The translations under genes were made by a program, and so were the position numbers. A stretch of DNA of 64,000 nt from an uncultured bacterium (GTDB lineage Bacteria > Oederibacteriota > PGYV01 > CAWJRG01). Below the pieces are notes generated by a model. The model made no database searches. It had not been told where the DNA came from and saw only the letters and a list, made by a program, of their open reading frames with translations. Numbering within the stretch: position 1 is the first letter of the stretch; each line of letters starts with the position of its first letter. This document shows positions 8,690 to 57,274 of this stretch, piece by piece. The stretch covers positions 844,140 through 908,139 of the forward strand of contig CAWJRG010000010.1 in NCBI GenBank assembly GCA_963845185.1, written 5' to 3'.

Positions 8690-9438
8690 TATATTTCTTT
8701 GCCGACAATCATTATAATACAAGAGCAGGTTTTTACCTTTATGATAAAATCAATCCCACTCCGCGAAAATCCCCAGCTGATAGAGCTGGGATTAATAGCG
8801 CTCCGGGGAGGGAGCAAATTAGAAAATTTTTTAAAGGTGGCTCCACAAATGATTTTCCAATAAAATTTTTTGAAGACGATATTTCAGTACTTGCGGGAAA
8901 AGAATTCCTGCGGAACTGCAGTCTTCTGATTGTCAATCTGATTTGCGGTACAGGAAGCCTGGGAATGCCGGGTGAGGAAATAGAGGTTCCTTTGAAAGAA
9001 TACTGCATGAGAGGAAGGCCTTTATTTCTTGTACATGCAGGCAGCGCAGCGTTCTGGCATTGGGAATGGTGGAGAAAACTTACAGGTTTGCGCTGGGTAA
9101 GGGAAAATAACCCGGAAGGAAAAGAGCCTTCAGTGCATCCTGTAAAGGATTTTTTAGTAGTCCCAGCCAAGAGCAGTCACACGATTGTAAAAGAATTAAA
9201 AAGTTTTGAATTGAAAAATGATGAAATATACACAAAACTTGAAAAGACACAGCCAGTTGATGTGCTTATGGAAACAACCATAGATGAAGGTACTTTTCCT
9301 ATGGCCTTTGTTTCAAAGAATGAGTGGGGTGGCAAGGTGTTGGGATTTTTACCAGGGCACAAGCCGGAGTCTTTTGAGAATAAAGAACTGATACACGACG
9401 TAAAGACAATAATAAAATACGCTTTGGAAGAAAAATAA
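8686..9438 (+). CDS. ThuA-like protein carrying an in-frame repeat insertion
   Basis: LVHAG..AF, HP, DEIY and FLPGH ThuA-type motifs; residues ~23-54 are encoded by family-2 repeat copy A. Confidence 0.7.
   Translation: MIYFFADNHYNTRAGFYLYDKINPTPRKSPADRAGINSAPGREQIRKFFKGGSTNDFPIKFFEDDISVLAGKEFLRNCSLLIVNLICGTGSLGMPGEEIEVPLKEYCMRGRPLFLVHAGSAAFWHWEWWRKLTGLRWVRENNPEGKEPSVHPVKDFLVVPAKSSHTIVKELKSFELKNDEIYTKLEKTQPVDVLMETTIDEGTFPMAFVSKNEWGGKVLGFLPGHKPESFENKELIHDVKTIIKYALEEK
8752..8846 (+). repeat. Family-2 palindromic element, copy A (in frame inside a CDS)
   Basis: AATCCCACTCCGCGAAAA-hairpin-ATAGCGCTCCGGGGAGGGAGCA...GGTGGCTCCAC; matches copies at 33467 and 57155. Confidence 0.9.
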
Positions 9439-9439
9439 G

Positions 9440-9602
9440 GTACCGCTTGTCTGGGTAGTTTATTTATTAAATGATTAATGGAAACTGCCAGTCAAATAGT
9501 CCACAGGACTATTTGACTGGCTTGAGCCTCGGACTTGAACGGGTACAATATCTCGTAATGTTTTGTCTGCGCTATGAAGCTTGACAAAACAAACGATCTA
9601 TT
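9440..9602 (+). repeat. Family-1 two-hairpin structured element, copy 1 (long form)
   Basis: GTACCGCTTGTC...GGACTTGAACGGGTAC plus GTAATGTTTTGTCTGCGCT..AGCTTGACAAAACAAAC; abuts GGAGG at 9603. Confidence 0.88.
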
Positions 9603-9613
9603 GGAGGCAGAAA

Positions 9614-9940
9614 ATGAAACAAGGCATGATTGTAACGACAGCATTTGAGATTCCGGGAAAAGAGATAGTTGAAAGCAAAGGGCTTGTGAGGGGAATAATA
9701 GTCAGGTCGCCCACAATAGTACAGGGGATATTCGGAGGTTTGAAAACCATAATAGGCGGCAAAATAGGCGCATACACTGAAATGTGCGAGCAGGCCAGGG
9801 AGCAGGCATACGAGGCAATGGAAGAACACGCCGCGGCAATAGGCGCCAATGCAGTTATAGGCTGCCGTTATGACGCTTCTGAAGTTGCAGTTGGAGCAAC
9901 CGAAGTGCTTTGCTACGGCACGGCAGTGGTTGTAAGATAA
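9614..9940 (+). CDS. YbjQ/UPF0145 family (putative heavy-metal-binding) protein
   Basis: MIVTT..IPG, GLK.IIGG, AR..A..GANAVIG.RYD and YGTAV; ATG at 9614 follows the SD. Confidence 0.9.
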   Translation: MKQGMIVTTAFEIPGKEIVESKGLVRGIIVRSPTIVQGIFGGLKTIIGGKIGAYTEMCEQAREQAYEAMEEHAAAIGANAVIGCRYDASEVAVGATEVLCYGTAVVVR

Positions 9941-9968
9941 ACAGACACCATACGAACTGATTTTGTGT

Positions 9969-9997
9969 TTGACAAAGCAATTTTGAAAGCATATTAT
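9969..9997 (+). promoter_or_regulatory. Sigma70-type promoter
   Basis: TTGACA-17-TATTAT upstream of the tandem family-1 copies. Confidence 0.6.
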
Positions 9998-10054
9998 TTT
10001 ATGTACCTACGAAGAATAGTAGATTCGAAGCAATAAAAAAACAAATTATGCCCA

Positions 10055-10146
10055 GCACCTCTTGACCTCGGCCTTATGGCCTCGGACTGGAGCGGGTACA
10101 AGATAGTGTAATATTTTGTCAGCGCCTGTTGACGGCTTGGCCAAGT
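10055..10146 (+). repeat. Family-1 element, copy 2a (second hairpin truncated)
   Basis: GCACCTCTTGACC..GGACTGGAGCGGGTAC plus GTAATATTTTGTCAGCGCC..GGCTTGGCCAAGT. Confidence 0.8.
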
Positions 10147-10148
10147 GG

Positions 10149-10249
10149 ACACCGCTTGTCTTCGGCCTGATGGCCTCAGACTTGAACGGGTGTATGTCGA
10201 TGTAATTTTCGACTGCACCCAGCGGGTTTGTCTCAAAAACATCGACATA
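10149..10249 (+). repeat. Family-1 element, copy 2b
   Basis: ACACCGCTTGTCT..AGACTTGAACGGGTGT plus a TATGTCGATG/CATCGACATA stem; abuts GGAGG at 10250. Confidence 0.88.
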
Positions 10250-10259
10250 GGAGGAATTC

Positions 10260-10955
10260 ATGAAGAAAATATTATTAGTGTCAGTTTTATGCATGTTTGC
10301 GGTGTCAGTGGCTCTTGCACAGCCAAAGAAAACTACAAACGGGGATATGTTTTCCTATATCCCGTACAAGAGCGCTACATGGAAGCAAAAAACCACGGTT
10401 GAGAACGACGCAGGCGTCAATACAATAGAACAGTCTGTGTGGTTCAAAGACAAAAAGATGCGGACAGAAGGTACGTATCTGGACAAGGGAACAGGCAAGG
10501 AAGGGGACCAGATAATAATTGTCACGGATAAATACATGTACGTAATAATTCCCGAAAAAAAACAGGGCCTTCAATATTCCATGGACAGCGCGAATAATCC
10601 GGAAAAAGAACAGCAAAGCGTGGATAAATTCAGAAAAAACGCGAAGAAGACAGGGTCTGAAAAAATAAACGGTGTGGAATATGACATTTATAAATATTCA
10701 TTTAATACCAAAAACGGCGCAAATAAAATTTATGCGGAGATTACAGAATGGCGGAACCAGACAGACGGATTTCCGATGAAAACCGAAAGCTGGATGAAAA
10801 TCACCGGAGAACAAACAGGGACAATGAAGACAATAACCGAAATAAGCGATTTAAAGATAAATGCCGCGGTTCCAGACTCCAAATTCGTGCCTGACAGCGA
10901 TATTCAAATAGGGGATATGGACGAGATGCTGAAGAAGACTGGGCAGAATAAATAG
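10260..10955 (+). CDS. Secreted protein, DUF4412/LolA-like fold
   Basis: Signal peptide; W.KDKKMR.E, TGSEKING..YDIY and VPDSKF motifs. Confidence 0.6.
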   Translation: MKKILLVSVLCMFAVSVALAQPKKTTNGDMFSYIPYKSATWKQKTTVENDAGVNTIEQSVWFKDKKMRTEGTYLDKGTGKEGDQIIIVTDKYMYVIIPEKKQGLQYSMDSANNPEKEQQSVDKFRKNAKKTGSEKINGVEYDIYKYSFNTKNGANKIYAEITEWRNQTDGFPMKTESWMKITGEQTGTMKTITEISDLKINAAVPDSKFVPDSDIQIGDMDEMLKKTGQNK

Positions 10956-11009
10956 ATATAAAGCAACAGAGTTATTTTTTAAATATAAACAATTCGGAAG
11001 AGGTAACAA

Positions 11010-12038
11010 ATGGGAAGCGTAAAAGAAGTGAAAGTTTTAAAATCTGCGGAAAAAGACAAGGAAGGCGAAGGAGAATTCATATTTTCAGACAGGTATTCGG
11101 TTTTTGACTGGGGAGAAATGCCTGACCATATTGACAAAAAAGGAGCTGCCTTATGCGTGCTTTCGGCTTTTTTCTTTGATATTCTTGATAAAAAAGGCGT
11201 AAGAACGCATTTTTTAGGGCTTGTTGAAGATGGAAAAGCAAAAAAGTTCGCAGAATTAAAATCATATTCAAACAAAATGCGCGTCAAGCTGGTGAGGGTG
11301 CTAAAACCGGCTTACGACAGTCAAAAGAATTCCTATGATTACTCGGTTTACAACGGCGAAAAAGACAATTACCTTATTCCTCTCGAAGTGATTTACAGGA
11401 ATAAGCTGGGAGATGGTTCAAGCGTTTTTAAAAGACTCAAATCCGGGGCAATCACATATAAGGATATGGGGCTTGACCATGAGCCAAAGCCGGGAGAAGT
11501 TCTTGTTGAACCCATAATAGATGTTTCAACCAAGCTTGAGCATATCGACAGGTACCTTGGGTGGGAGGAAGCAGCGGCAATTTCAGGCCTTTCGCCGGAA
11601 GGCATAAAGAAAGTAAAAGACCTTACCCTGCTGATAAACGGCGTCATAAGCGAGTATACTAAAAAATACGGAATAGAAAACGAGGATGGAAAATTCGAGT
11701 TTGCCATAGACAGGGAAGAAAACACCATGCTTATAGACGTGCTCGGGACGCCGGATGAATGCAGGTTCTCATATAAAGGTTTCCACATAAGCAAGGAATT
11801 CGCAAGGCGCTGGTACAGGAAAACAGAATGGTTTAACGAGGTTGAAAAGGCAAAAAAGGAAAGGGGCCGCGACTGGAAAAAGTTTGTAAAAATAAAGCCG
11901 GAGCCGTTGCCGGATGAGATGAAAATCCTCCTGTCGCACATGTACCTCGCAGTTACAAATGAAATAACAGGCAGGAGATTTTTTGATGTGCCCGAGCTTC
12001 CAAAAATCATAGAGGAGTTGAAAAAATATGACACCTGA
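11010..12038 (+). CDS. purC: SAICAR synthetase, long type
   Basis: GSVK, FSDRYSVFDWG, IPLEVIYRN, STKLE, DGKFEF and DVLGTPDECRF motifs. Confidence 0.93.
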   Translation: MGSVKEVKVLKSAEKDKEGEGEFIFSDRYSVFDWGEMPDHIDKKGAALCVLSAFFFDILDKKGVRTHFLGLVEDGKAKKFAELKSYSNKMRVKLVRVLKPAYDSQKNSYDYSVYNGEKDNYLIPLEVIYRNKLGDGSSVFKRLKSGAITYKDMGLDHEPKPGEVLVEPIIDVSTKLEHIDRYLGWEEAAAISGLSPEGIKKVKDLTLLINGVISEYTKKYGIENEDGKFEFAIDREENTMLIDVLGTPDECRFSYKGFHISKEFARRWYRKTEWFNEVEKAKKERGRDWKKFVKIKPEPLPDEMKILLSHMYLAVTNEITGRRFFDVPELPKIIEELKKYDT

Positions 12039-12633
12039 AAATGTCCTGGCATACCGCCTGAGGGTGTTGAACAAAACAAAACAATATTATTACGGGGATA
12101 CTTTGCTTGATGTGGGCTGCGGTGACGGCCTGGATGATGAGCTTATGCTGAAATATTTCAAAAGAATAGAGGGAATAGACATAAATGAAAATCCGGCGTG
12201 GAACGAGCACAGGAGGGAAAACCTTATATTGAAGAAAGCAGATGCGGAAAACCTGGATTACCCGGACAATAGCTTTGATACTGTCATAGAAAAAGACGTA
12301 CTGCACCACGTGTCTGACCCGGAAAAAGCCTTAAAAGAAATGACAAGAATAGCAAAGAAAAGAATAATACTAATAGAGGCAAACCGGTATAACCCGCTTT
12401 TTTACATTTTTTTGACTTTAATGTGGAAACACAACCATTTCAGACAGAAAAGATTCAAAGAACTTGTAAAGTCAAGCGGCCTGCAGTCGGAAATTATGCA
12501 TTTTTCCGCAAGAGTATGCCCAATAAACAACAGCGGATTTATAAAGTTTTTTGACAAACTGGAAGATCTTATTGAGAAATTCCCGCCTTATACGCCCATA
12601 ATAGAATACAACCTGGCAATAATAACAAAATAA
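12028..12633 (+). CDS. Class I SAM-dependent methyltransferase
   Basis: LLDVGCGDG, DAENL.YPDNSFD and VLHH motifs. Confidence 0.88.
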   Translation: MTPENVLAYRLRVLNKTKQYYYGDTLLDVGCGDGLDDELMLKYFKRIEGIDINENPAWNEHRRENLILKKADAENLDYPDNSFDTVIEKDVLHHVSDPEKALKEMTRIAKKRIILIEANRYNPLFYIFLTLMWKHNHFRQKRFKELVKSSGLQSEIMHFSARVCPINNSGFIKFFDKLEDLIEKFPPYTPIIEYNLAIITK

Positions 12634-13688
12634 TGCTTACCAGGATTGATAATGTTTTAAAAACAATAACAAAAAACCAAGCATTTTATATTTCCAACGC
12701 CTCAGATATTTTTTACCTTACAGGTTTTTCGGGGACTTTTGCCAGGATAATTGTAAAAGAAAAAAAAGCACATTTTATAACCGATTACAGATATGAAAAA
12801 GTCGTTGAAAAAACAGGCATTGAAAAAAAATTCAACGTAATAATAACAAAAGACCATGTAAAAGATACTAGGCTGCTTTTATCAGAGAGCAAAAAAGTTT
12901 ATATGAGCAAAAAGACGCAGCTTGAGGAATATTTTTCAGTCAAGGACGGCATGGGTAAAGAAATAGAGTTCAGCAGCCTTATAAGCGATTTGAGGATGAT
13001 AAAGGATAACGAGGAAGTAGAGCTCATAAAAAATGCGGTAAAAATAATCGAAGCAGGAATTAAATATATAACTTCCATTATAAGGGAAGGCATGAGCGAA
13101 AAAGACCTTGCAACAGAACTTGAATATTTTATAAAGAAAAACGGAGCTGAATCAATGTCTTTCCCGCCAATCATAGCCTTCGGGCAAAACTCAAATAGCC
13201 CGCATCATATAACTTCCATGAAAAAGCTGAAAAAAGGCGATGTAATCCTGATGGATACTGGCGTAAAATACAATGGTTATTGTTCTGACTTGACAAGGGT
13301 GGCAGGCTTCGGTATAATCAAATCTCGCCTAAAAGAGGTGGAAAAAAACTATAATCTTGTGCAGGAAGCCAAAAAAATAAGCCTTGATTCCTACAGGATA
13401 GGCATTTTCATAAATAAAGCCGAGCAAAAAGCAAGGGAATTCCTTAAGAAATGCGGGCTTGAGCGGTTTTTTACCCATTCGCTCGGACATTCCCTTGGAA
13501 TAGATATACATGAATTACCGGCATGCAATTTAAAGGAAAATACCAGATTCAAAAAAGGACTGGTTTTGACCTGCGAGCCCGGAATATATTTAAAAAATTA
13601 CGGTATAAGAATAGAAGATGATTACCTGATAACCAGTGCAGGGCCGGAAAAGCTCGGCAGGATGAAAGATGATCTTATTGTGATTTAA
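12633..13688 (+). CDS. Xaa-Pro aminopeptidase (M24 family)
   Basis: YLTGFSG, D.G...GYCSDLTR, HSLGHSLG..IHE, EPGIY and GIRIED; lies directly upstream of efp. Confidence 0.93.
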   Translation: MLTRIDNVLKTITKNQAFYISNASDIFYLTGFSGTFARIIVKEKKAHFITDYRYEKVVEKTGIEKKFNVIITKDHVKDTRLLLSESKKVYMSKKTQLEEYFSVKDGMGKEIEFSSLISDLRMIKDNEEVELIKNAVKIIEAGIKYITSIIREGMSEKDLATELEYFIKKNGAESMSFPPIIAFGQNSNSPHHITSMKKLKKGDVILMDTGVKYNGYCSDLTRVAGFGIIKSRLKEVEKNYNLVQEAKKISLDSYRIGIFINKAEQKAREFLKKCGLERFFTHSLGHSLGIDIHELPACNLKENTRFKKGLVLTCEPGIYLKNYGIRIEDDYLITSAGPEKLGRMKDDLIVI

Positions 13689-13751
13689 CGATTTGACAAT
13701 AAAATAGTTTAACAAACAAATGCAAAAATAATATCAAGGAGGCAAAGTTTT

Positions 13752-14315
13752 ATGTCTTTAGCAACAGATTTAAGGCCAGGTGCCATTATAAAACACGAGG
13801 GCATAATTTACGAGATAATATATTACCACCATGTCCAGAGGCCCAGGCTGGCGCCGCTGGTGCGTTTAAAAATGAAAAACATTAAACTTGGCACAGTTAC
13901 AGAAAGGACTTTCAGCCCTGATGATAAAATGGAAGACGTGGCAGTTGAAGAAAGAAAACTCCAGTTTCAGTACAGGCAGGGAGATTCGCTTCATTTTATG
14001 GATACGGATTCTTATGAACAATACGAGTTTAACGAAAAGCAGATAGGCGAGCAGAGCCATTACCTGAAAGAGGAAATGACAATATCCATGATGATATATG
14101 AAGGAGAAATCCTCGGCGTTGTTGTTCCGAACAAGGTGGATTTAAAAGTAGCGCAGGCGCCACCTGCGGTAAAAGGCGATACGGTGAGCAACGCAACAAA
14201 AACAGCGGTGCTGGAAACAGGAACACAGGTACAGGTGCCGCTTTTTATAAAAGAAGGTGATACCGTCAGAGTCGACACAAGGACAGGAGAGTATGTGGAA
14301 AGGGTAAGCAATTGA
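13752..14315 (+). CDS. efp: Elongation factor P with a non-canonical loop
   Basis: KGDT, LETG..VQVPLFIKEGD..RVDTRTGEYVER C-terminal signature. Confidence 0.97.
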   Translation: MSLATDLRPGAIIKHEGIIYEIIYYHHVQRPRLAPLVRLKMKNIKLGTVTERTFSPDDKMEDVAVEERKLQFQYRQGDSLHFMDTDSYEQYEFNEKQIGEQSHYLKEEMTISMMIYEGEILGVVVPNKVDLKVAQAPPAVKGDTVSNATKTAVLETGTQVQVPLFIKEGDTVRVDTRTGEYVERVSN

Positions 14316-14395
14316 CAAATCCGGGTGAAAATCCCGTAAAATATAACCGGCTTGATGAAAAAATAAAGCAATAAATTAAAAAGGCGGTGTAAAAA

Positions 14396-14911
14396 ATGCC
14401 AAAACAAGAAAAAGAACCCAAAGTGGATATAGATCTTATAAATCAGGTGCTGAAAATAATGGAAAAAGGAGACCTGGTTGAGCTCCTTGTCGAACAGGAT
14501 AATTTTAAAATACAGCTGAAGAAAAGCGGGGCAAATATCATGCATTCAACGCCAACAATTTTTACAACATCGGCACCTGCAAATTTTCAGGCATCCGCAG
14601 GGCCTGTACAGTCAGCGGCAAGCACAGGGCCAGCTGCAGAAGCGGCAAAGCCTGTTGAAGAAGACCCGAATGTTCATACGGTGAAATCGCCAATGGTAGG
14701 GACTTTTTACAGGGCTCCGTCTCCTGACGCGGCGCCGTTTGTCAATATCGGCGACAATGTTTCGCCAGGCCAGACTCTGTGCATAATCGAAGCAATGAAA
14801 ATAATGAACGAAATTAAATCAGAAATAAAAGGCAAGGTAAAGGAAGTCAGGGTTGAAAACGGACAGGCTGTTGAATTTAACCAGCCAATTATATTAATAG
14901 AAAAGACATAA
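14396..14911 (+). CDS. accB: Acetyl-CoA carboxylase biotin carboxyl carrier protein
   Basis: SPMVGTFYRAPSP and the EAMK biotinylation site. Confidence 0.97.
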   Translation: MPKQEKEPKVDIDLINQVLKIMEKGDLVELLVEQDNFKIQLKKSGANIMHSTPTIFTTSAPANFQASAGPVQSAASTGPAAEAAKPVEEDPNVHTVKSPMVGTFYRAPSPDAAPFVNIGDNVSPGQTLCIIEAMKIMNEIKSEIKGKVKEVRVENGQAVEFNQPIILIEKT

Positions 14912-14929
14912 ACTGCAAAGGATGGCACA

Positions 14930-16276
14930 ATGTTTAAAAGGATTTTAATAGCAAACAGAGGCGAAATAGCGCTGCGAGTTATCCGCGCATGCAAGGAAAT
15001 GGGCATTGAAACGGTTGCCGTATTTTCGGAAGCCGACGAAAATTCCCTTCACGTGCGTTACGCTGACCACGCAATATGCATAGGCCCGGCCCAGGCAAAG
15101 GAAAGTTACCTTAATATGCCGGCCATCATTTCCGCGGCCGAAGTTACGGATTCAGAGGCAATACACCCGGGTTACGGTTTTTTGGCTGAAAACGCCCATT
15201 TTGCTGAAATATGCGCGGAGTGCAATATAAAATTTATCGGGCCATATCCCGACGCCATTAAGGCAATGGGAGACAAGGCGCGCGCAATACAGACAGCCAT
15301 CGCAAACAAAGTCCCTACTGTGCCGGGCAGCGGAAGAGTTTTAAAAGACGAGAACGACGCCGTGGAAATAGCAAAAAAGATAGGGTTCCCTGTCATGATA
15401 AAAGCATCTGCAGGAGGCGGCGGCAGGGGCATGAGGATTGCCCATACCGAGCTTTCGCTGCGCAACCTGTTTAACGTCGCCAGGCAGGAGGCGCAGACTG
15501 CTTTTAACGACCCGGCGGTTTACCTCGAAAAATATGTCGAGGAACCAAGGCATATTGAGATACAGATAATGGCCGATGAATACGGCAATTGCATCGCCCT
15601 GGGCGAAAGGGACTGCACTATCCAGCGGAGGCACCAGAAGCTCCTTGAAGAAACACCCTCGCCCATGCTCAACGAAAAATTAAGGCATGAGATGGGACTG
15701 CTTGCGGTGAAAATAGCAAAGGCAGTGAAATACGTAGGAGCCGGCACCATAGAATTTATCATGGACAAAAACAGGGAATATTATTTCATGGAAATGAACA
15801 CAAGGATTCAGGTCGAGCACCCGGTTACCGAGGAAGTCACAGGTTTTGACCTTATTAAAGAGCAGATAAAGGTCGCGTCCGGCAGGAGGCTTTCGTTTCC
15901 GCCAAAGGAACTCAAGCTGAGGGGACACGCCATAGAATGCAGGATAAACGCAGAAGACCCTGATAATAATTTCATACCATCGCCGGGCACAATTACGGAA
16001 TATAACGTACCTGGCGGTGCAGGCATAAGGATAGACACGCATGTTTACAGGGGATATAAGATACCGCCGTATTATGATTCAATGATGGCAAAAATAATAG
16101 CAAAAGGAAAAGACAGGGAAGAAGCAATAGAAAGAATGCAAAGGGCGCTTGATGAATTTGTAATAGAGGGAGTGAAAACAACCATACCGCTGCACAAAAG
16201 AATACTGGACAACGAGAATTTCCTCAGGAACAATTATTCCACATTATTTATAGAAAAACTGGAAAAGGAAAAATGA
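14930..16276 (+). CDS. accC: Acetyl-CoA carboxylase biotin carboxylase subunit
   Basis: ANRGEIA, HPGYGFLAEN, GGGGRGMR and EMNTRIQVEH motifs. Confidence 0.98.
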   Translation: MFKRILIANRGEIALRVIRACKEMGIETVAVFSEADENSLHVRYADHAICIGPAQAKESYLNMPAIISAAEVTDSEAIHPGYGFLAENAHFAEICAECNIKFIGPYPDAIKAMGDKARAIQTAIANKVPTVPGSGRVLKDENDAVEIAKKIGFPVMIKASAGGGGRGMRIAHTELSLRNLFNVARQEAQTAFNDPAVYLEKYVEEPRHIEIQIMADEYGNCIALGERDCTIQRRHQKLLEETPSPMLNEKLRHEMGLLAVKIAKAVKYVGAGTIEFIMDKNREYYFMEMNTRIQVEHPVTEEVTGFDLIKEQIKVASGRRLSFPPKELKLRGHAIECRINAEDPDNNFIPSPGTITEYNVPGGAGIRIDTHVYRGYKIPPYYDSMMAKIIAKGKDREEAIERMQRALDEFVIEGVKTTIPLHKRILDNENFLRNNYSTLFIEKLEKEK

Positions 16277-16289
16277 TTTGAGGTGATTT

Positions 16290-16652
16290 ATGACGGCAAA
16301 CATAAATGAAGCGGGCGACATAAAAATTTCAGACGACGCGGTAGCGATGATAGCGGCAATTGCCGCAAAAAAAGTGGAAGGCGTTATAGGCCTGGATTCA
16401 GGCCCGGTGGGCGGCATAGCCGAGGCGCTGGGAATGCAGAACATGACAAAGGGCATAAAAGTAAGCATGGGAAAAGACAGCGTATCGCTTGATGTTAACC
16501 TAGTTGTTTTATTCGGCAAGGAAATATCGGACGTGGGCGCCGAGGTCCAGGAAAAAGTAAAAGAGGCTATTGAAAATATGACGGGCCTAATAGTCGATAA
16601 AATCAACGTTAACATAAACAGCGTCAGATTTGCCAAAGAAAAAAGCCTGTAA
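16290..16652 (+). CDS. Asp23/Gls24 family protein (YqhY-like)
   Basis: G.IKISDDAVA.IA..AA..VEGV and VQEKVKEAIENMTGL..INVNI. Confidence 0.9.
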   Translation: MTANINEAGDIKISDDAVAMIAAIAAKKVEGVIGLDSGPVGGIAEALGMQNMTKGIKVSMGKDSVSLDVNLVVLFGKEISDVGAEVQEKVKEAIENMTGLIVDKINVNINSVRFAKEKSL

Positions 16653-16671
16653 TAACTAAAGGAGGACTTAC

Positions 16672-17229: not shown

Positions 17230-17231
17230 TA

Positions 17232-17462
17232 ATGAAGGAAATCCTGAGGATTGTTATCCAGAATATAGGAAAGATAATTGGCGCGGTAGTTGCCTTTTTT
17301 ATTGCGCTGATGATAGCGATATTCGGGTTTTTAAAAACTATATTCATAGTCCTCTGCGTGCTTTTAGGGTATTACCTCGGCACGCTTTTTGACGACGGAT
17401 TATCCTTCAAGAAAACAATAAAAGACATCATGAACCTTTTCAGGCTGGATCAATGGCATTAA
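17232..17462 (+). CDS. DUF2273 small membrane protein
   Basis: GKIIGA...FGFLKTIFI..C..LGYYLG; usual partner of amaP. Confidence 0.75.
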   Translation: MKEILRIVIQNIGKIIGAVVAFFIALMIAIFGFLKTIFIVLCVLLGYYLGTLFDDGLSFKKTIKDIMNLFRLDQWH

Positions 17463-33330: not shown

Positions 33331-33466
33331 GACGCCTCCGGGAAAAATTTATTCAGCAACAAAAGCAGCAACATTATACACAATAATTTTTTAAAAAACA
33401 GTAATAATTATTTACGCAAAAAAATGGTATAATATATAACAGCAAACATTGAGCAAGAAAAATTTT

Positions 33467-33629
33467 AATCCCACTCCGCGAAAATCCCCGCCGGTAGAGG
33501 CGGGGATGGATAGCGCTCCGGGGAGGGAGCATATTATAGATGGCAATTCGAATGAAAGCAAACTCGGCGAGGTAAAACCGAGCCGAGATTTTTTTAAAGG
33601 TGCCACGCCTGTGAAGGCGGGGACTCCAC
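33467..33629 (+). repeat. Family-2 palindromic element, copy B (long form, intergenic)
   Basis: Same core as 8752 plus extra hairpins CTCGGC..GCCGAG and CGCC-TGTGAA-GGCG; ends in CTCCAC. Confidence 0.9.
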
Positions 33630-33647
33630 AAAGGGGAAGCCCAAAAC

Positions 33648-35237
33648 ATGCACAACAAAGGGTTTATTATCCTGCAAATAGACGGCCTGTCTTTTATTGA
33701 CCTGCAAAAAGCTTTTAAATACCGCTACATGCCTTTTTTAAGCCGCATTTACAGGAATAAAAAAATTGCCATAAAAGAAATGAAAACCGGGCTGCCAAGC
33801 AACACGCCTTATACGCAGGCAAACATGTTTTACGATAAGCCGGAAAGTATACCGGGCTTCAGGTGGTTTATCAAAAGCCAGAAAAAAAACATGACCTTTA
33901 AATTGCCTGATACCGCAGTATATGTCGACAAGCAGTACGATTTTTCAAAAGCAATATTAAAAGGCGGGACATGCTATGTGTCTTTATTGTCAGGCGGGGC
34001 AGACGAGGGCTTATTTACTCTGTCAAGGGCGTTTGAAAAGGAGAGGGGCGACAGGCTTTTCGGGCTGAGAGTCCTGGGCCTTACTCTTATTAACATCGTG
34101 ACAATACTGAATATGCTGTGGCTTTCATTGAAAGAATTTTACAGGGAAATCAGGGATTTTTTACTTTATACTTTCAAAAAACAGATCCAAAGGGGCGAGG
34201 GGTTTTTTCCGCTCGTCAGGATAGTCAACAACGTCATATTCAGGGAAATATCCGTTTGGGCAATAATAAGGGATATAAAAAGGAGCATGCCATATATTTA
34301 CATGGATTTTACAATTTATGATGAAAACGCACACCAGCGCGGGCCTGACAGGAAAAACGTGCTTCATGTCCTGCGCGATATAGACACGAATATCAGGCAA
34401 ATATACAGGGCAGCTCGCAGGAACAGGGAGATAAAATACGATATTTTTGTCTTGTCAGACCACGGCCAGACATTTTCAATACCGTATTCATATGTAAACG
34501 ACGGCACTTTCGAGGATTTTGTGAAGAATACAATCAAGGAGCAGGCAGTGGCAGGCGACAAATACGCGGAAGACTGGAACAGCAATGTGCTTAAATTTGC
34601 GCGTGATATACAGCAGAAAATATTCCCCACAAAGACAGTGAACTACATGGCGGGCAAGCTGGGCTCGAGCATAGAAAAATCCGCTACAAAACGTATCAGG
34701 GCCGAAAGCCAGGCAATGCCTGAAAAAAAGCAGGAAGTTATTGTGAAATATTCCGGGCCAATGGCGCATATATATTTTCCTGAGCTTTTGGGCAAAGCAG
34801 ATACTGAACACATAGAAATAGACCAACCCGGCCTGATACAGGCGATAATGCGGCACAAGGATATTGAAATAATTGCATGCAGAAATAAAAATGAAAAGAT
34901 TATACTGGGCAAAAACGGCATCCTGGTAAAGGAAAGCGAAAAAGACTTGTATACGGTAAAAGGCACAAACCCGCTTAACTGCTACGAAGACACCCATTTC
35001 GCGTATGAAGAAATAATGTCCCTGCTTGACCGGCAGGACAGCGGCGATTTGATCGTGTTTTCAAGGTACAGCAATAATTTCACGATCAATTTTGAGGAAC
35101 AGCTATCGGCGCACGGAGGTATGGGCGGAAACCAGAACAACGCGTTTTTTGCATGCCCTGCCGACAGGGCAGGAGATATTAAAATAGAAACAATAAGGGA
35201 TTTATACGGCATATTTATCAAATACCATGAAAAGTAA
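33648..35237 (+). CDS. Alkaline phosphatase / nucleotide pyrophosphatase family protein
   Basis: LQIDGLS, PSNTP, YDENAH.RGP, LSDHGQ and HGGMGG motifs. Confidence 0.85.
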   Translation: MHNKGFIILQIDGLSFIDLQKAFKYRYMPFLSRIYRNKKIAIKEMKTGLPSNTPYTQANMFYDKPESIPGFRWFIKSQKKNMTFKLPDTAVYVDKQYDFSKAILKGGTCYVSLLSGGADEGLFTLSRAFEKERGDRLFGLRVLGLTLINIVTILNMLWLSLKEFYREIRDFLLYTFKKQIQRGEGFFPLVRIVNNVIFREISVWAIIRDIKRSMPYIYMDFTIYDENAHQRGPDRKNVLHVLRDIDTNIRQIYRAARRNREIKYDIFVLSDHGQTFSIPYSYVNDGTFEDFVKNTIKEQAVAGDKYAEDWNSNVLKFARDIQQKIFPTKTVNYMAGKLGSSIEKSATKRIRAESQAMPEKKQEVIVKYSGPMAHIYFPELLGKADTEHIEIDQPGLIQAIMRHKDIEIIACRNKNEKIILGKNGILVKESEKDLYTVKGTNPLNCYEDTHFAYEEIMSLLDRQDSGDLIVFSRYSNNFTINFEEQLSAHGGMGGNQNNAFFACPADRAGDIKIETIRDLYGIFIKYHEK

Positions 35238-48058: not shown

Positions 48059-48095
48059 GATATTTTATATAAACCATAAAATATTAACAAAATAC

Positions 48096-48124: not shown

Positions 48125-48171
48125 TAATGCACTAAGGATAAAAATAGAATTGTTAGTTTAAAAAACAAAGA

Positions 48172-48265: not shown

Positions 48266-48279
48266 ATAGGAGGAAATAT

Positions 48280-49071: not shown

Positions 49072-49192
49072 ATTTGATGTTTGGGATTTTCTTTAAAATT
49101 TTTGAAAAGTAATTTAGGGGTTTGGCCGGCTCTATTAAATTTATAAACCGAGGCGGTTACTATAGAGCCGATAGGTTGTGTAAAGGATACAA

Positions 49193-52100
49193 ATGAAGAG
49201 TGAAAATTTATGGTTAAAGAGTAAACTTTTTAGAATTGATTTTAACGCTAAAAATTTTATTAAAAGAATTTTTTTTGTTTTTTTTACCCTTGTATTTTTA
49301 ATGTTCCCATTTTTCGCATATTCCCAACAAATGGACCACTTTAATGTGTCAGGACCCGTCAACTCAAGCGCGGACAGCGTTTTCTTCATTACGGTGACGG
49401 CAATAGCAAATGACGGCTCGGTTTTTACAACATATAACGGTACTGTAACTTTCAGCACTTCATCCGGGCTTTATAACCTTCCGGCAAACTACACTTTCCA
49501 GACTTCCGACGCAGGCGTGCATGTTTTTGCAGTGCAGATAATGGCAGGCGGAGATCAGAGCATATTTGTGAATGATTATAATTCGCCGGGTATATCCGGA
49601 AGCACTGTAGTCACCATAACCAGCGGCAGTGCAGCTTTCCTGACAATATCAGCCCCGGCTGCGTCGAGCGCGGGGCAGGCTTTTTACATTACTGTAACCG
49701 CAAAAGACCTTTATAATAATATAGCGATATCGTACAGCGGTACCGTGCATTTCACATCAACTGATCCTTCGGCAGTATTGCCCCCTGACGCGACATTCCA
49801 GCGCGACGACAACGGCCAGGAAATATTAAGCGTGACAATGAAAACCGAAGGTACGCAGACAATAACTGGACAGGACCTTGAGAACAATTCAATAAGCGGG
49901 GTAAGCAACGCGATAGCTGTCTCGAGCGGGATAGTTGTAAGTTTCAATGTAAGCGCGCCGACAATAGCAAACCCGGGCACAAATTTTAATTTCGCCGTAT
50001 CTGCCATGGACGCGTACGGAAACGTGGCGCAGAATTACACAAATACGGTGCATTTTACCTCGAGCGACGGCGCGGCTGTTCTACCTGCAAATTACACTTT
50101 CCAGGCGAGCGACTACGGCAGCAGGATTTTCCCTGTCACGCTGAATACCACGGGTTCCCAGACCATATCGGTCAATGATGTTTCAGCGGCTACAATAAAC
50201 GGAGTAAGCAACAACATAAACGTGCTGGCAAGCGGGTCAACTTTATACAGCCAGCCTTTGCTTCTGACAGCATACCTGCCTGCAGCAAACGCGTATCAGT
50301 ATGATTATATATATATTTCGCATACAGCACAGACCATTGCAATAGCAAATAACACTTATCTCCAGTACGATGTTTTCATGCCAACCTATAACCCGGATTT
50401 TTACACGGGCACTGAATTCGCAGAGACGGCCGGGGCCGCAGCGGGCCAGTGGGATATGAGGGATTTTGGACAGCCTCAGAATTATATAATAGACCAGAAC
50501 GGAATAAGGTGCCATCCATCCATGGACCTGTCAGCGTATGCGTATGGGCAGTGGTACCACAGGACATTTAACATAGGTTCTCTCGGAGGACATACATATA
50601 ATCAGGCAGAGCTTGCGCTGGATACGGGTAATGCAGGGCAAAACGGCGCACCCTCAAACAAGGCAGGCACTTTCAACGCTGTATATGACAACATAGTTTT
50701 TACGGACTCTGGCGGCAATATACTGAGGAACTTTTTTTCGGATAACAACTTAATTCCTTATAACGCAGCTGTGTCGGTAAACGGAAGCGCCGGAGCCGGA
50801 AATAACGGAAGCGGAGGAATAAGCGGGCCTCCGGCCAACAATGACCCGGTGCCTTTAAATGATTATGTATGGATAGTAAAAAGCCTGTCGGTCACCCAGA
50901 CCCCGATAGGTGATGTCCAGGTCGGCGGTCAGTATGTGACAATTGCGGCCCAGCTTTTATCCGTGGGAAATAACCGGGTGCCTTATGCACTTGCTAACTG
51001 TACTTCAAATCGGTTTCAAGACTCTATTACGCCGATATTAGCTACAACTTATACAGCCGATACATTGGCGATCACAAATGCTCAAGGTTACGCTTATAAT
51101 TTAATAAGCTCGACAGCTGCAGGCCCGGCTGTAGTGACTGTACGTTCCGTACACCTCACGAGTATGATAACTATTAATTTTCTGGCAGGTCCTGCGACGC
51201 AGGTGGATGTAATACCAAATACGCTTACAACGCAGACAAATGTAAGCGGCTCAATGGTTGTCGAGGCACAGGATATGTACGGTAATGTGACGGTCAGCAC
51301 GCAGACAATAAACTTATCAGCAAACGCTTCGTCAAACCTGCGTTTTTCTTCTGACAATGGAGCCACATGGCACCAGACACTGGCGGTTTCCGGGGCCGCT
51401 CCAAGTAATATACTTGTAATAGACTCCACTGCGGAAACTTCGACAGTATTTGCTGCAGCCGCCGGGCTCAGCACTGGCACAGCAACTGTTTATGTGAATA
51501 ATGCGCAAGCCACGGGCCTTGCGATAATTCCTGCAACAAGCACGACAATGGCAGGTGTGGGTCCGCTTTTTACAATACAGGCAAAAGACGCGAATAACAA
51601 CGACGCTTATTCTACGGCAAGCGTGCAATTGACATCAGCATCGGGAACCATGATGTTTTCGACAGATAATATAAATTATTCGAACTCATTAATCGTCACG
51701 CTGAACGACGGCAGTGCCAGCGCCTATTACAGGGATACGTCAATGAGCGCCATGCCTGTGACAGTAACAGCGTCTTCGGCTGGGTACACAAGCGGCAAAG
51801 CTTATGAGACAATAGTCCCCAACACAGCGGCACTGCTTAACGCGTGGGCAAATTATTACGCGGTTCCGGCAGGGCAATACGTCACAATAACCGCACAGAT
51901 TACAGACGCTTACGGAAACCCGACAGCTGGCCAGTGGGTTACAGCCACATCGGCCGATGGCGCAACCGTGACTGCCCAATCAAACACTACAAACGCCATA
52001 GGCGAGATAACTTTATATTTTCTTACGGGTGCAACGGTTGACGCGGAAAATTACTGCATAATCAACTCGCCGGGATTGCTCGGCAAGACCCTTACCATAT

Positions 52101-54283
52101 CCGGGTCAGGTACCGCAAACCACCTTTCAATACTGCCGAGCCCTTATTCTGTAGGCGCTGGGAAAACAGGAACATTGTATATTTACGCAAAAGACGCCGG
52201 TGGTTATAACGCCCAGGCGACCAGCGGGCACACAAACGAACTCATATATTTACCTGCAGGAGACGCGGGAAATGCGTTTAATTTTTCGATTGACGGCATA
52301 AATTGGGCGACTTCTACAGCAGTTCAGCTTAATACAAGCGGAGCAGGACAGGTGTATGTCAAATCATCAGTGGCAGGCTCATATCTGGCCGACGTCATAG
52401 ACGAGAACACGACAGGGCAGCTCGCGGCAACAAACGACACCATTACGGTAACCACGGGCTATTATGTGTATGTGTCACCGAGTACGGCGCTTACCGCTAC
52501 AGCAGGTGCGTATGTGACAATAACAGCGTGGATTGTGGACCAGAACGGCACTCCTCAGGCGCTGCAGAACGTGCAGGTTGCTTTCAGCGCAAGCAACGGC
52601 TCGGTATCTCCGGTCATAGCCTATACAAACGCGGCAGGCCAGGCGTCCACGGGACTAACACTTTCAATAGCACCTTATGCGCAGCAGGTGGTGACGGTTA
52701 ACACATCAAACCCGAGCGCCAGCACAATAACTGCGGCAATAACCTCAATACCCGTGATTACCTTTGACGTTTCATTGCCGGCTACTGCCACAAAAGGGAC
52801 AGCTGTTCAGGCAGTGGTAAGGGCAAGGGACGCTTACGGCGCAACAATAACAAATTATAACGGTACTGTGAATATGACTTCGTCAGCTGGCGTAAATGCT
52901 GTGATTAACCCTTTGAGCTATACTTTTACAACTCAGGATGCGGGCGTAAAAATTTTTAACGTGACTTTTAACGCAGCAGGCACTTGGACCGTCACAGCCA
53001 CTGATTCAGTAAAACCGTCCATAACTGGAACAAGCAATAATGTAATAGTATATCTCCAGGCAACACCCACGCCAACTTTTTCGCCGACAAAAACAATTAC
53101 GTCCACAAAAACACCGACATCAACGTACACAATGACACCCACAATAACTCAGACATTTACAAATTCACCCACTTACACAATTACACCGACAGCTACAAAG
53201 TCCAGCACAGCGACGAATTCTGCAACATTCACAATAACCGCAACAAATACGCCCACATATACAATAACTCAGACATCTACTATAACACTTACATCAACTA
53301 TCTCGGCAACTTATACGAACTCACCGACAATTACACAAACTTCGACAGCAACGCCTACATTTACAAGCTCGCCGACAAATACGCCTACATACACAATAAC
53401 ACTGACGTCTACAGGAACTCCTACTTTTACAGCTACGCCGACTTTCACAGCTACGGCAACAGAAACACTGACTGATACCGGAACTTCGACTCCTACATAT
53501 ACGGCGACTTTCACGGCAACACCTACAGATTCACCTACATACACGGTAACTTCTACACCTACCGATACTGTGACTTTTACAGCAACGCAAACTTACACGG
53601 CTTCGCCGACAGTAACCCAGACTTATACCATAACGCCTACAAACACAATTTCAGCAACATATACCATAAGTCCGACAGATACAGAAACAGGCACGATAAC
53701 GCTTACATCCACTGAGACACCGACATGCACAAATTCATCAACACTGACTGCAAGCCCGACGTTAACATATACAGATACGGTAACACAATCCAGCACTGCA
53801 ACTGAAACGCAAACATCCACAACAACCCCGACATTCACCGGAACTTTTACAAACACATATACTGTATCTGAAACACAAACATCTACAGCAACCCCGACAT
53901 TCACCGGTACACCTACAAACACGGAAACAATGACTATCACAATAACTTCAACGCAGAACATAATTCTTACAGTAACGGTTACACCAATGCCTTATTACAG
54001 GGAGGAGACTGAAGGTTCAAGCCATGTTTTCCCTCAGCCGGCATCGACAACCTTAAATATTGTTTTCGGGCTTAACGAGCAGGCCAATGTCTCAATATAT
54101 ATTTATAACGCGGCAGGCACGCCGGTTGCGCAGCTGCAAGCCGCGGGTATGGCATCGGATTATAACAGGGTTACCCTGGACATTTCAGGGTTTTCGCCCG
54201 GAGTTTACTTCTATATTATTAAGGCCCAAGCCCAGGGCAGGGAAATCAAATTTAACGTGAATAAGTTCATGGTAGCGAAGTGA
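49193..54283 (+). CDS. Large surface protein with Ig-like repeats, a Thr-rich linker and a C-terminal sorting-type domain
   Basis: Repeats of TA.D.YGN...Y.GTV.FTS.D...LP.NYTF; about 310 aa of T/P/S-rich sequence; C-terminal FPQPA...IYN..G...GVYFY.I. Confidence 0.85.
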
Positions 54284-54287
54284 AAAA

Positions 54288-55523
54288 ATGAAAAGATATT
54301 TTTTTGCTGCAGTAATAATAATGCTTTCAGTATTTTCTTTTGCCGCAGTGGATAACAGTGCTGGAATAATATTTTCTTCCATGAATATGGGCGTGGGCAC
54401 CAGGGCTGCCGGTATGGCCGGCGCTTTCACCGCAGTCGCGGATGACGTAAGTGCGGTTTACTGGAACCCTGCAGGGCTGGCGTTGATAACAAAAAACGAG
54501 ATAGACATGACATATGATAAATGGTTCATGGACACTTATTACAGCCACTTAATGACTTCAATAGGACTGCCGAGCGGAAACCTTGGCGTTGATATTTTTT
54601 ACATGAATTTTGGGACATTTAACAGGGTTAGTGATTCCGACATGGTGACAGGCTCGCTCGCGTCGCCTTACAGTATGGAGGGTTCAATTGCTTACGGCCT
54701 GGACCTTGCTCCCGGATTCTCAGCCGGAGTATCAGCGAAATTCATGCAGCAGTCCATGGATATTTCTTCAAACATGGGCATTGCCGCTGATGTTGGGGCA
54801 ATATATAAAACAGGAATTATATCTGCGGGCATAAGCGCGCAGAACATAGGCACAGCCGGCCCATATTCGCTGCCAATGAGCGTCATGCTGGGGTTTGCGG
54901 TGAAAGCTTTAAACACAACCTTAAATAACCTACTACTTGACGCGGACTGCCATTACATATTTAAGGATGTTCCGGTCGTCTGCGCCGGTGCTGAATATAC
55001 TTATTCAAAGTTTCTTTCCTTAAGGCTAGGTTACGGTTACAGGCTGGGGCCAAATAATGTCAATGGTTTTACCGGACCAGCAGCCGGAGCAGGGATTAGC
55101 CTGAACGATATAGGTTTTGATTACTCTTTTGTGCCGTACGGCGACCTGGGGTTTACGAATAGTGTCACCCTTAAATACATGTTTGGGGCGAGACAGCCAA
55201 ATCCGCAGCCTGTTGCAAAAGCAAAGGAGCAACCGACGCCTGTACCCGCAATAAAAAAGATTGTTGAAAAAACAGAAGAAGAGTTTAATACGATGTTTTT
55301 TAAAGGTGCCACGCTGGAAAATGCTGGGAAGCTCAGCGCTGCCGAAACGCAATACACAGCGATATTGGAAAACGACCCTAATTACGCGGAAGTGTGGAAG
55401 CGCCTTGGCGCGGTATACGTGAAAATGAAAAGAAAAGCCGATGCAATAAGCTGTTTTGAAACATACCTGAAATTAAAACCTGATGATGCCGCTGTCAAAC
55501 ACTGGCTGGATAAAAATAAATAA
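54288..55523 (+). CDS. PorV/PorQ (UPF0164)-family beta-barrel with C-terminal TPR
   Basis: GTRAAGMAGAFTAVADDVSAVYWNPAGL, LRLGY and DYSFVPYGDLG motifs. Confidence 0.85.
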   Translation: MKRYFFAAVIIMLSVFSFAAVDNSAGIIFSSMNMGVGTRAAGMAGAFTAVADDVSAVYWNPAGLALITKNEIDMTYDKWFMDTYYSHLMTSIGLPSGNLGVDIFYMNFGTFNRVSDSDMVTGSLASPYSMEGSIAYGLDLAPGFSAGVSAKFMQQSMDISSNMGIAADVGAIYKTGIISAGISAQNIGTAGPYSLPMSVMLGFAVKALNTTLNNLLLDADCHYIFKDVPVVCAGAEYTYSKFLSLRLGYGYRLGPNNVNGFTGPAAGAGISLNDIGFDYSFVPYGDLGFTNSVTLKYMFGARQPNPQPVAKAKEQPTPVPAIKKIVEKTEEEFNTMFFKGATLENAGKLSAAETQYTAILENDPNYAEVWKRLGAVYVKMKRKADAISCFETYLKLKPDDAAVKHWLDKNK

Positions 55524-55552
55524 AAATACCTTGGGCGCAAGCCCTTGGATTT

Positions 55553-56092
55553 TTATGCTTTAACGGAATAGATACACCCGCAGTAATTTTGACGGTATAA
55601 ATTATGCTTTTTTGACAATTCAATTGACTTTTTAAAGCCATCCTTTTTCTTAAAATCAGATTCGTAATAATTAACCCCGTATTTTAAGCCTGCTTCTTTG
55701 CCTAGTTTATTTATTAACGCTGCATTTTTATGGGGTGAAATGGTGAGGGTTGTAGCAAAGATTTCAATGCCGAGTTCTTTTGCCTTTTGCGATGTTTTTT
55801 CAAGACGCATTTTAAAGCAGATTTCGCAGCGCTTGCCGCCTTCGGGTTCATTTGCCATGGCGTCGCAAAGCTCATGCCACTTGTCAATATCATAAGGCAA
55901 ATCACCAATATTTTGTACATTTTCAGTTTTTGCCAGCTTTTTCATATCTTCTACACGTTTTAAATATTCTGATTCAGGGTGGATATTAGGGTTGTAAAAA
56001 AAAGTTGTAATTTCATAGCCCTGTTCACGTAGTGCGTTTATGCAGTGCGTAGCGTCAGGAGCGCAGCAGACATTCAGCAGTATTTTTGGCAT
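55553..56092 (-). CDS. queH: Epoxyqueuosine reductase
   Basis: CCAPD, FYNPNIHP..EY..R, EGGKRCEICF.MRL, SPHK and YRQNYCGC motifs. Confidence 0.93.
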   Translation of the reverse strand: MPKILLNVCCAPDATHCINALREQGYEITTFFYNPNIHPESEYLKRVEDMKKLAKTENVQNIGDLPYDIDKWHELCDAMANEPEGGKRCEICFKMRLEKTSQKAKELGIEIFATTLTISPHKNAALINKLGKEAGLKYGVNYYESDFKKKDGFKKSIELSKKHNLYRQNYCGCIYSVKA

Positions 56093-56120
56093 AATAAGCA
56101 CCTTTGTATGTTTTTTTAAT

Positions 56121-56148
56121 GTAGAGACACGCCATGTCGCGTCTCTAC
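56121..56148. repeat. GTAG-type REP-like palindrome
   Basis: GTAGAGACACGCCATGTCGCGTCTCTAC. Confidence 0.8.
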
Positions 56149-56164
56149 TCTACTTAATTCCTTT

Positions 56165-56193
56165 TTGACAATAATACTTATTTATTATAGAAT
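56165..56193 (+). promoter_or_regulatory. Sigma70-type promoter
   Basis: TTGACA-17-TAGAAT. Confidence 0.6.
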
Positions 56194-56227
56194 ATACCAA
56201 AATTTTGACAAGGAGAAACACCAAAAA

Positions 56228-57274
56228 ATGAAACAAACAATTCTTGTTACCGGCGGGGCTGGATTTATAGGCTCGCATTTATGCGAAACGCTTATTGCTC
56301 AGGGACACAAAGTAATATGTGTAGACAACCTGGGCAGCGGCAAAATGGAGAATTTAAAAGGAATAATAAAAAACAAAAATTTTAAATTTATAAAGCATGA
56401 CATTATTAAACCTATAAAAATAAAAGAAAAAGTTGATTGTGTTTTTCACATGGCTTCATACGCCTCGCCTCCTTATTACCAGAAATATTCAATTGATACG
56501 CTCATGACAAATTCCCTGGGCACTTACAATGTGCTTGAGTTTGCCAAGATAAAAAAAGCCAGATTCCTTTTAACATCGACTTCAGAAGCCTACGGAGACC
56601 CGAAGGAACATCCGCAGAAGGAAACTTACTGGGGGAATGTAAACCCGGTTGGCGTGAGGAGCTGCTATGACGAGGCAAAAAGATTTTCTGAAAGCCTCAC
56701 AATGGAATATTTAAGGAAACATAACCTTGACGCGAGGATAATAAGGATATTCAACACATATGGCCCGAGGCTGCAGAAAGACGACGGCAGGGTAATCTCA
56801 AATTTTATCTGCCAGGCATTGAACAACTTACCAATTACAATTTACGGTAGCGGAAAGCAGACAAGGAGCTTCTGCTACGTTTCAGACATGGTGGCAGGCC
56901 TGATATCCGCGATGTTTCACGACAATACAAAAGGGGAAGTTATTAACCTGGGAAACACAAATGAAAAGAAAATCAGCGAAATAGCACATGTAATAAAGAA
57001 TATGACTGGAGCAAAGGTTGAAATCATATACAAACCACTGCCAAAAGACGATCCAACGAGAAGGAAGCCGGATATAACAAAAGCAAAAAAAATCCTTGGC
57101 TGGCAGCCTGAAATTCCGCTTGAGGAAGGCCTGCAAAAAACAATAGAATGGTTCAATCCCGCTCCGCGAAAAACCCCGCCGGTAGAGGCGGGATTTGATA
57201 ACGCTCCGGGGAGGGAGCATATTATAGGCAAGGATGTTTTGCCCGTGAAGCGAGGTGGCTCCACTGCGAAATAA
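56228..57274 (+). CDS. UDP-glucuronate decarboxylase (UXS-like SDR) with a repeat-derived C-terminal tail
   Basis: TGGAGFIGS, STSE.YGDP, YWGNVNP.G.RSCYDE.KR and RIFNTYGPR; the last ~39 aa come from family-2 copy C. Confidence 0.92.
   Translation: MKQTILVTGGAGFIGSHLCETLIAQGHKVICVDNLGSGKMENLKGIIKNKNFKFIKHDIIKPIKIKEKVDCVFHMASYASPPYYQKYSIDTLMTNSLGTYNVLEFAKIKKARFLLTSTSEAYGDPKEHPQKETYWGNVNPVGVRSCYDEAKRFSESLTMEYLRKHNLDARIIRIFNTYGPRLQKDDGRVISNFICQALNNLPITIYGSGKQTRSFCYVSDMVAGLISAMFHDNTKGEVINLGNTNEKKISEIAHVIKNMTGAKVEIIYKPLPKDDPTRRKPDITKAKKILGWQPEIPLEEGLQKTIEWFNPAPRKTPPVEAGFDNAPGREHIIGKDVLPVKRGGSTAK
57155..57264 (+). repeat. Family-2 palindromic element, copy C (in frame at a CDS 3' end)
   Basis: AATCCCGCTCCGCGAAAAACCCCGCCGGTAGAGGCGGG..GCTCCGGGGAGGGAGCATATTATAG..GGTGGCTCCAC. 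Confidence 0.9.

Follow-up and report, generated by a model that had tools for sequence, protein, structure and literature searches.

What kind of element can insert itself into unrelated genes and leave each of them readable? The question is raised by a 64,000-nt stretch of DNA from an uncultured bacterium of the phylum Oederibacteriota (assembly GCA_963845185.1, contig CAWJRG010000010.1, positions 844,140 to 908,139 of the forward strand; hereafter the window), in which a palindromic repeat occurs three times, twice in frame inside a gene that codes for protein. A preliminary description, made from the sequence alone, considered the repeat an undescribed mobile element similar to the Rickettsia palindromic elements (RPEs). 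Our analyses suggest a more familiar origin. With a probability of roughly 0.87, we interpret the repeat as a gene-less derivative of the IS200/IS605 insertion sequences, that is, a palindrome-associated transposable element (PATE), likely mobilized in trans. Where copies lie in frame, we predict that each gives its host protein an additional loop, which is tolerated. This interpretation builds on features observed directly: the ends of the repeat, its target, the lack of duplication, the complementarity of its guides, its leading-strand orientation, and a filter on frame and length.

The repeat and its host genes occupy the following positions of the window, all on the forward strand:

8686..9438 (+): ThuA-domain gene, 250 aa, host of copy A; intact open reading frame (ORF), Pfam ThuA E 1.5e-17
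8750..8753 (+): copy A target TCAA (consensus TTNA), outside the element; boundary taken from an empty site
8754..8846 (+): copy A, 93 nt, in frame, adding 31 residues between helix 1 and strand 2
8767..8790 (+): copy A left-end guide AAAT (8767-8770) and subterminal hairpin; putative role by analogy with IS608 (PMC3201880)
33465..33468 (+): copy B target TTAA
33469..33629 (+): copy B, 161 nt, in the gap separating two divergent genes; of the three window copies, the most complete
33482..33505 (+): copy B left-end guide AAAT and 7-bp hairpin, followed by AT
33599..33629 (+): copy B right end, with guide GGTG, hairpin and terminal CCAC
56228..57274 (+): UDP-glucuronate decarboxylase-like gene, 348 aa, host of copy C
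57153..57156 (+): copy C target TCAA
57157..57264 (+): copy C, 108 nt, in frame, adding 36 residues behind the last helix, two codons short of the stop

All three copies reported in the preliminary description are present with their shared core, and such recurrence is far beyond chance, but the repeat is not limited to them. A profile search (nhmmer) located 39 left ends in the source genome, and for 30 of these a right end could be defined. The count was again 39 with a covariance model for which 19 copies, partly the same ones, had been used, while BLAST with the three window copies gave 47 merged loci, some of which are halves of one copy. The 30 copies with both ends measure 45-278 nt, which leaves no room for a transposase gene. 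When metagenomes were scanned for the exact pattern, 10 loci with 11 copies were added, and one of these loci (L026) was decisive for the boundaries: it carries a 93-nt copy inside a radical SAM gene, and in the orthologue of the source genome the same flanks are joined directly. This exact empty/filled pair delimits the element as TCCC...CTCCAC, lying 3' of TTAA with nothing duplicated. The true starts in the window are therefore 8754, 33469 and 57157, each 2 nt later than first proposed, because the AA at that point belongs to the TTAA or TCAA target.

Beyond this pair, flank overlap is at most 2 nt in 29 of the 30 copies with both ends, in agreement with the earlier remark that no target-site duplication is visible. 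The four bases 5' of the element fit TTNA in 30 of 39 copies, against a background of 2.8%, and all 39 fit within one mismatch. Terminal CCAC was found in 25/30 copies, a motif that the end-finder demanded. Palindromes lie near both ends (TCCC and CCAC); inverted repeats at the termini themselves are absent. Neither of the marks of a MITE (miniature inverted-repeat transposable element), terminal inverted repeats and target duplication, is seen in the repeat. The right hairpin is kept in long copies and lost in short ones such as copy A, which retains GGTG and CCAC.

The organization of these ends points to IS200/IS605. In IS608, cleavage sites are read by 4-nt guides located 5' of each hairpin, the first two guide bases pair crosswise with the site while the third is free, and AT follows the left hairpin (PMC3201880, accessible text); the guide rule and the strand bias are described there and in PMC5027513. 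Applied to the repeat, this rule calls for TTxA from the left guide (AAAT) and for CCxC from the right one (GGTG), both as observed. The fourth base of an IS608 guide pairs as well. GGTG or GGCG is paired with CCAC in 11 of the 12 parsed copies of the source genome. A perfect left stem of at least 5 bp is formed in 27 of 39 copies, as compared to 14.7% of random sites, by 22 different arms; the covariation proposed earlier for this inner hairpin is upheld to that extent, but not by the pair count on an automatic alignment of 19 copies, which did not exceed that of shuffles (score 0.061 vs 0.072).

Further support for this origin comes from known elements. Among the plasmid records matching the left end, of which 6 of 9 were examined, the best match is itself the left end of an annotated tnpB element, on plasmid pAt1 of Allochromatium tepidum (NZ_AP024564.1), with 35/40 nt identical (87.5%, E 2e-4 to 9e-4), an equal 17-nt spacing and a compensated guide/target pair (AAAG/TTAC in the pAt1 element, AAAT/TTAA in the repeat). 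A second plasmid match sits at an annotated IS200/IS605 element, and two more precede ORFs that resemble the beginnings of TnpB; the cut sites of these matches are putative. The source genome's own right end gave no informative plasmid match. By eye, the layout and the guide rule are the same in multi-copy autonomous tnpA elements from this phylum, and their right hairpin is identical to that of relatives of the repeat discussed below. The preliminary description had named a match to the end of a known insertion sequence as the outcome that would speak against an unexplained RPE-type element, and such a match, to IS200/IS605, is what the ends provide. The Allochromatium plasmid (L127:314-3830) also holds a tnpA-tnpB element, more hairpin ends and a second tnpB element, back to back.

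The alternative that fares best is a REP- or REPIN-like repeat (from repetitive extragenic palindrome) moved by a domesticated RAYT (REP-associated tyrosine) transposase rather than a fused-ends IS200/IS605 derivative. Many hairpin loops of the repeat contain GTAG, longer Y1 proteins (200-350 aa) are common in the phylum and occur in a genome with relatives of the repeat, and intragenic REPs are reported in the accessible part of PMC3733652. The repeat, however, is asymmetric, with distinct left and right ends, an external target tetranucleotide and two guides; its GTAG lies in the loop and not at the foot of the hairpin; and its left end matches those of tnpB elements. Moreover, no Y1 gene was found in the source genome, and in the genome G059 the two shortest Y1 genes were searched for an adjacent family hairpin with a negative result. 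We consider this alternative improbable.

The orientation of the copies is also that expected of an IS200/IS605-type element: all 39 lie on the G-rich leading strand, including 7/7 in divergent gaps, in which the direction of genes favors neither strand. Since 90% of called genes are likewise on the leading strand, the independent part of this comparison is small. The strand order of the source genome is very strong overall, with 92% of called coding bases on the leading strand.

Seven of the 39 copies lie inside six intact genes of the source genome, and 32 are non-genic. The hosts are the ThuA and decarboxylase genes of the window, a family 9 glycosyltransferase, two TMEM260-like membrane proteins, one of which holds two copies, and a SpoIIE/HAMP protein. 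All seven genic copies are sense-oriented, stop-free and in one frame, which bears out the frame bias that the preliminary description had proposed to look for. Their lengths are multiples of three in 7/7 cases, compared to 4 of the 23 non-genic copies with both ends defined (Fisher p 1.6e-4), nine copies without a defined right end being left out of this comparison. Only one of the 23 non-genic copies is both a multiple of three and open in the genic frame. Copy B is stop-free in the shared frame, as was first noticed, yet it is 161 nt long and out of frame with the next gene. By eye, no copy was seen in the source genome whose removal would restore a long broken ORF.

Comparison with homologues indicates that the peptides are additions to existing proteins. 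Copies A and C are in frame as initially described, within a ThuA-domain ORF and an NAD-dependent epimerase ORF, respectively. Of 182 ThuA homologues found, 25 were aligned, and 24 of these lack the 31 extra residues. The remaining homologue, sister of the window protein in the tree (support 94/92), has a 21-residue remnant at the same site, the first half of which resembles a shifted frame of the element by eye. The copy C host matches the UDP-glucuronate decarboxylase 2b69 (E 4.8e-106, residues 20-331), and the match stops exactly at the start of the insert; the peptide itself matched no Pfam family. Paralogues of the membrane-protein hosts show exact gaps of 33 and 47 residues where the inserts sit. 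In an AlphaFold model of the ThuA protein, the insert is placed between helix 1 and strand 2, in line with the structural check first suggested, at a predicted local confidence (pLDDT) of about 50 against 88-98 elsewhere, although so low a value is expected anyway for alignment columns with one or two rows. We predict that in-frame copies add a short, floppy loop to the host protein. With homologues lacking the peptide, host ORFs intact and a strong frame bias, the central proposal of the preliminary description, a mobile repeat adding an in-frame peptide, is supported.

It could be objected that the element is real while its host genes are dead or dying, so that the in-frame state has no consequence for protein. 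Several hosts do come from one family, of which the source genome has at least 16 paralogues. Against this, the decarboxylase is full length and single-copy (the next-best ORFs of the genome are 30-36% identical), and the ThuA insert is common to two lineages, the sister branches noted above, whose insert-bearing proteins are 80.4% identical outside the insert; the radical SAM pair is similarly 80.9% identical. That pair has diverged by 0.11 non-synonymous changes per site (dN) and 0.99 synonymous ones (dS), most of which may predate the insertion. We regard decay of the hosts as quite unlikely. The paralogous family is that of the TMEM260-like proteins (at least 16 members), and the source genome also has many dispersed copies of a repetitive gene family matching locus L020. 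Least probable is a small intron or other self-removing RNA, in which case the peptide would at no time be part of the protein: the strength of folding, the long-range stem that in relatives connects the 5' end with the middle, and the co-orientation of every copy with the gene it occupies or precedes would suit it, but splicing would make frame-keeping unnecessary, so that the seven in-frame, stop-free genic copies count against it, as do the ThuA orthologue whose shortened 21-residue insert, with its partly shifted frame, still restores the ORF and the lack of any match in Rfam, a search that the preliminary description had also advised.

Is the peptide itself of use to the host? A peptide profile run over 7,999 scored candidates retrieved seven proteins: five belong to the source genome, one is the radical SAM protein, and the last is a fragment of different source. 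In-frame cases thus amount to seven copies in six genes of the source genome, one metagenome gene and one protein fragment of other source. Against 50%-cluster representatives, the profile gave four matches, all rejected: two are short ORFs that overlie the element, and two are translations of unrelated repeats. No selection on the peptide was evident among six genic copies, which differ by two synonymous and 10 non-synonymous codon changes (10 and 59, respectively, in other copies), a comparison of low power. The peptide therefore looks, from these sequences, like a tolerated passenger and not a selected module. About 80% of the TTNA sites on the leading strand lie in called genes, yet only 7/39 copies are genic; this shortfall would be expected if most insertions into genes were removed, or if intergenic DNA were preferred.

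Two TMEM260-like paralogues, at C1:71721 (L091) and C5:562084 (L092), each have the element at the same codon, but in differing versions. They are not grouped by the tree, and a single origin is rejected at borderline significance (p-AU 0.049), so one target may have been hit twice, or conversion may have occurred. In high-GC genomes of other orders, three copies with open frames were considered as further in-frame cases, and none is a clear genic insertion.

How old is the repeat, and how far does it extend? Two copies occupy orthologous places in the source genome and in the metagenome locus L023, which indicates that some insertions are old. Within the source genome, identity to the nearest copy has a median of 81% and a maximum of 93%, giving no sign of recent movement. 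The left-end pattern was found in 0 of 40 relatives, BLAST over 98 other genomes gave two weak matches only, and the repeat was not found in viral contigs, phages or E. coli. Eight exact 20-mer matches in GTDB covered only 21-32 model positions on extension and were taken as chance.

The covariance model nevertheless led to related mini-elements in a genome of another order, and from there to a wider set. Of 99 genomes of the phylum, 13 contain the right-end pattern and none contains its reversed control, and the gene-less relatives in the 12 genomes other than the source are about 125-180 nt long. Among 58 right ends outside the source genome, the guide/end pairs are GGTA/CCAT in 48 and GGTG/CCAC in three, with seven discordant. 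On the left, AAnA occurs with TTAT, GAnA with TCAT and GGnA with CCRT; 19 of 28 parsed left ends fit at all three positions, and the first two guide bases pair in 45 of 56 cases, as compared to a shuffle mean of 26.9, with none of 5000 shuffles as high. Guide and target, as read from these sequences, covary across the gene-less relatives of the phylum. The first bases of the relatives also have a complementary partner in mid-element, and the two change together, forming the long-range stem mentioned above. By eye, one 129-nt relative (L232:3-620, genome G057) may lie antisense and in frame near the start of a protein with ankyrin-like repeats.

Several results weigh against an IS200/IS605 derivation. 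Neither a Y1 transposase (Y1_Tnp) nor a TnpB zinc finger was found in the source genome, which is 99.4% complete, and no autonomous element with these exact ends was found, tnpA and tnpB being absent within 1.5 kb upstream in 27/27 related loci. At guide position 4, 22 of 39 copies have T and 10 have A, and the target shows no matching change. Among the 58 relatives, only 28 had a left end that the parser could read, the parser itself in part dictates target position 4, and an earlier parser with a fixed offset gave only 8/21 full matches; kin among the relatives are not independent, so the guide/target counts are patterns and not probabilities. The strand comparison, finally, rests on seven divergent gaps and a crude gene caller. 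Other searches for a parent were similarly negative: tblastn of 31 TnpA-like ORFs against the source genome gave a single match at E 0.009, models of the ends had no significant match at 30 Y1 loci of the phylum, although Y1 genes occur in 72 of its 99 genomes, and the translated middles of long copies showed no convincing TnpA remnant. With no tnpA found and nearest copies about 81% alike, the repeat is probably inactive in the source genome now.

On balance, we favor a gene-less IS200/IS605 derivative, which would work as follows. It would consist of the fused left and right ends of such an element, without its genes, and TnpA supplied in trans would have moved it as single-stranded DNA. If IS608 is a guide, TnpA would bind both hairpins, the 4-nt guides would pair with TTAA and CCAC, and the top strand would circularize and then insert into the lagging-strand template. 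One sense frame, in which the cut falls after the second base of a codon, would most often be open. Internal deletion and nested inserts may account for the variation in length, and purifying selection would spare only stop-free copies with a length divisible by three, at permissive sites. The mobilizer may since have been lost from the source genome, or may not be assembled.

Some copies preserve unusual arrangements. Core-deleted forms of 45 and 48 nt, with the left tip joined to the right hairpin, occur at C10:9099 and C3:6504 of the source genome, and the 45-nt form is in frame near the start of the SpoIIE/HAMP protein. The element's hairpins also house other palindromic repeats, nested at one of two fixed places, the left hairpin loop (C5:561394, C9:624194, C9:824480, C10:688480) and the middle (C6:76326, C10:199003, C9:528107, C9:532452, C9:918685, C9:907524), and one nested insert is itself in frame within a gene (141-nt copy). 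At C5:432813-432695, a second left end directly abuts the right end of the first copy. The left end at C11:39981 is cut off after its hairpin, with the remainder not found within 6 kb; the start of the gene that follows resembles an IS1182-type transposase. A called start lies downstream, at a distance of no more than 100 nt, for at least 13 of the non-genic copies. In the window (33428-33648), a TATAAT box lies 35 nt before copy B and the next ATG 18 nt after it, so this copy is likely part of a transcribed leader. For the gene after copy C (57255-59573), the start of the longest ORF (GTG at 57255) falls inside the copy, and the real start is probably downstream.

More speculatively, the repeat may be one branch of a phylum-wide gene-less family whose targets were reprogrammed by guide changes (TTAA, TTAT, TCAT, CCAT) and whose stem was kept for a dedicated trans-acting HUH enzyme, an extension we hold as doubtful. 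Were it true, excision would be exact, so that in-frame copies would serve proteins as loop cassettes that can be taken out again, and RPE-type coding repeats in general could have arisen by this route. Protein-writing repeats have been known since the Rickettsia elements, and the reviews, in their accessible text, name neither a demonstrated enzyme nor a target rule for them. For the present repeat, sequence is enough to read the ends, the rule for the target and the filter on frame, so the route can be tested in vitro by a standard TnpA assay, for which the family offers a natural series of guide/target changes. For annotation, the repeat explains odd loops of 15-47 residues in these proteins. 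Its biology is probably neutral, that of a selfish element tolerated by selection.

Among known systems, the closest are the PATEs of Haloquadratum walsbyi (PMC3119063), together with a PATE-like element of Halanaerobium (PMC7290912). The repeat agrees with the definition of a PATE in the accessible text of PMC3119063: it likewise has near-terminal palindromes without terminal inverted repeats, no target duplication, no room for a transposase, a conserved terminal oligonucleotide, core-deleted forms of 45-48 nt, repeats nested in hairpins, and persistence without an intact tnpA. It differs in sequence family and in its bacterial host, and neither in-frame genic copies nor family-wide covariation of guide and target are reported for PATEs in the accessible text of these two papers. 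Our literature searches found no description of this repeat family and no paper on PATEs in frame in genes, a result that extends beyond neither subscription papers nor ISfinder and leaves room for intragenic cases in the supplements of PMC3119063. With IS200/IS605 elements (IS608 and the pAt1 tnpB element) the repeat shares the layout of the left end, the 35/40-nt match, AT after the left hairpin, strand bias, and crossed pairing of guide and cleavage site with target position 3 free. Unlike them, it has no tnpA or tnpB, uses TTAA and CCAC in place of TTAC and TCAA, and possesses the long-range stem from its 5' end to its middle.

The resemblance to coding repeats is of another kind. RPEs, as far as the accessible text of the reviews describes them (PMC10969869, PMC3733652, PMC3184786), are REP-like repeats ending in CGTC, with nearly half of their copies in ORFs. 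Compared by these descriptions only, they share with the repeat a size of about 100-150 nt, a structured and dispersed character, and some in-frame fusions to unrelated genes with a recognizable peptide. The repeat differs from them in having 7/39 copies in genes and IS200/IS605 end structure, and it ends in TCCC and CCAC where PMC3733652 gives the terminal CGTC tag. Intragenic REP, ERIC, BOX and RUP sequences likewise fuse in frame to host ORFs, at loops or termini, but in the accessible literature they are short palindromes or MITEs with terminal inverted repeats, and the repeat has neither such repeats nor a target duplication. The repeat therefore resembles RPEs in outcome and PATEs in origin and is not a new class; the kind of element is known, the family apparently undescribed, and an outcome like that of RPEs comes with a mechanism that can be read unusually well.

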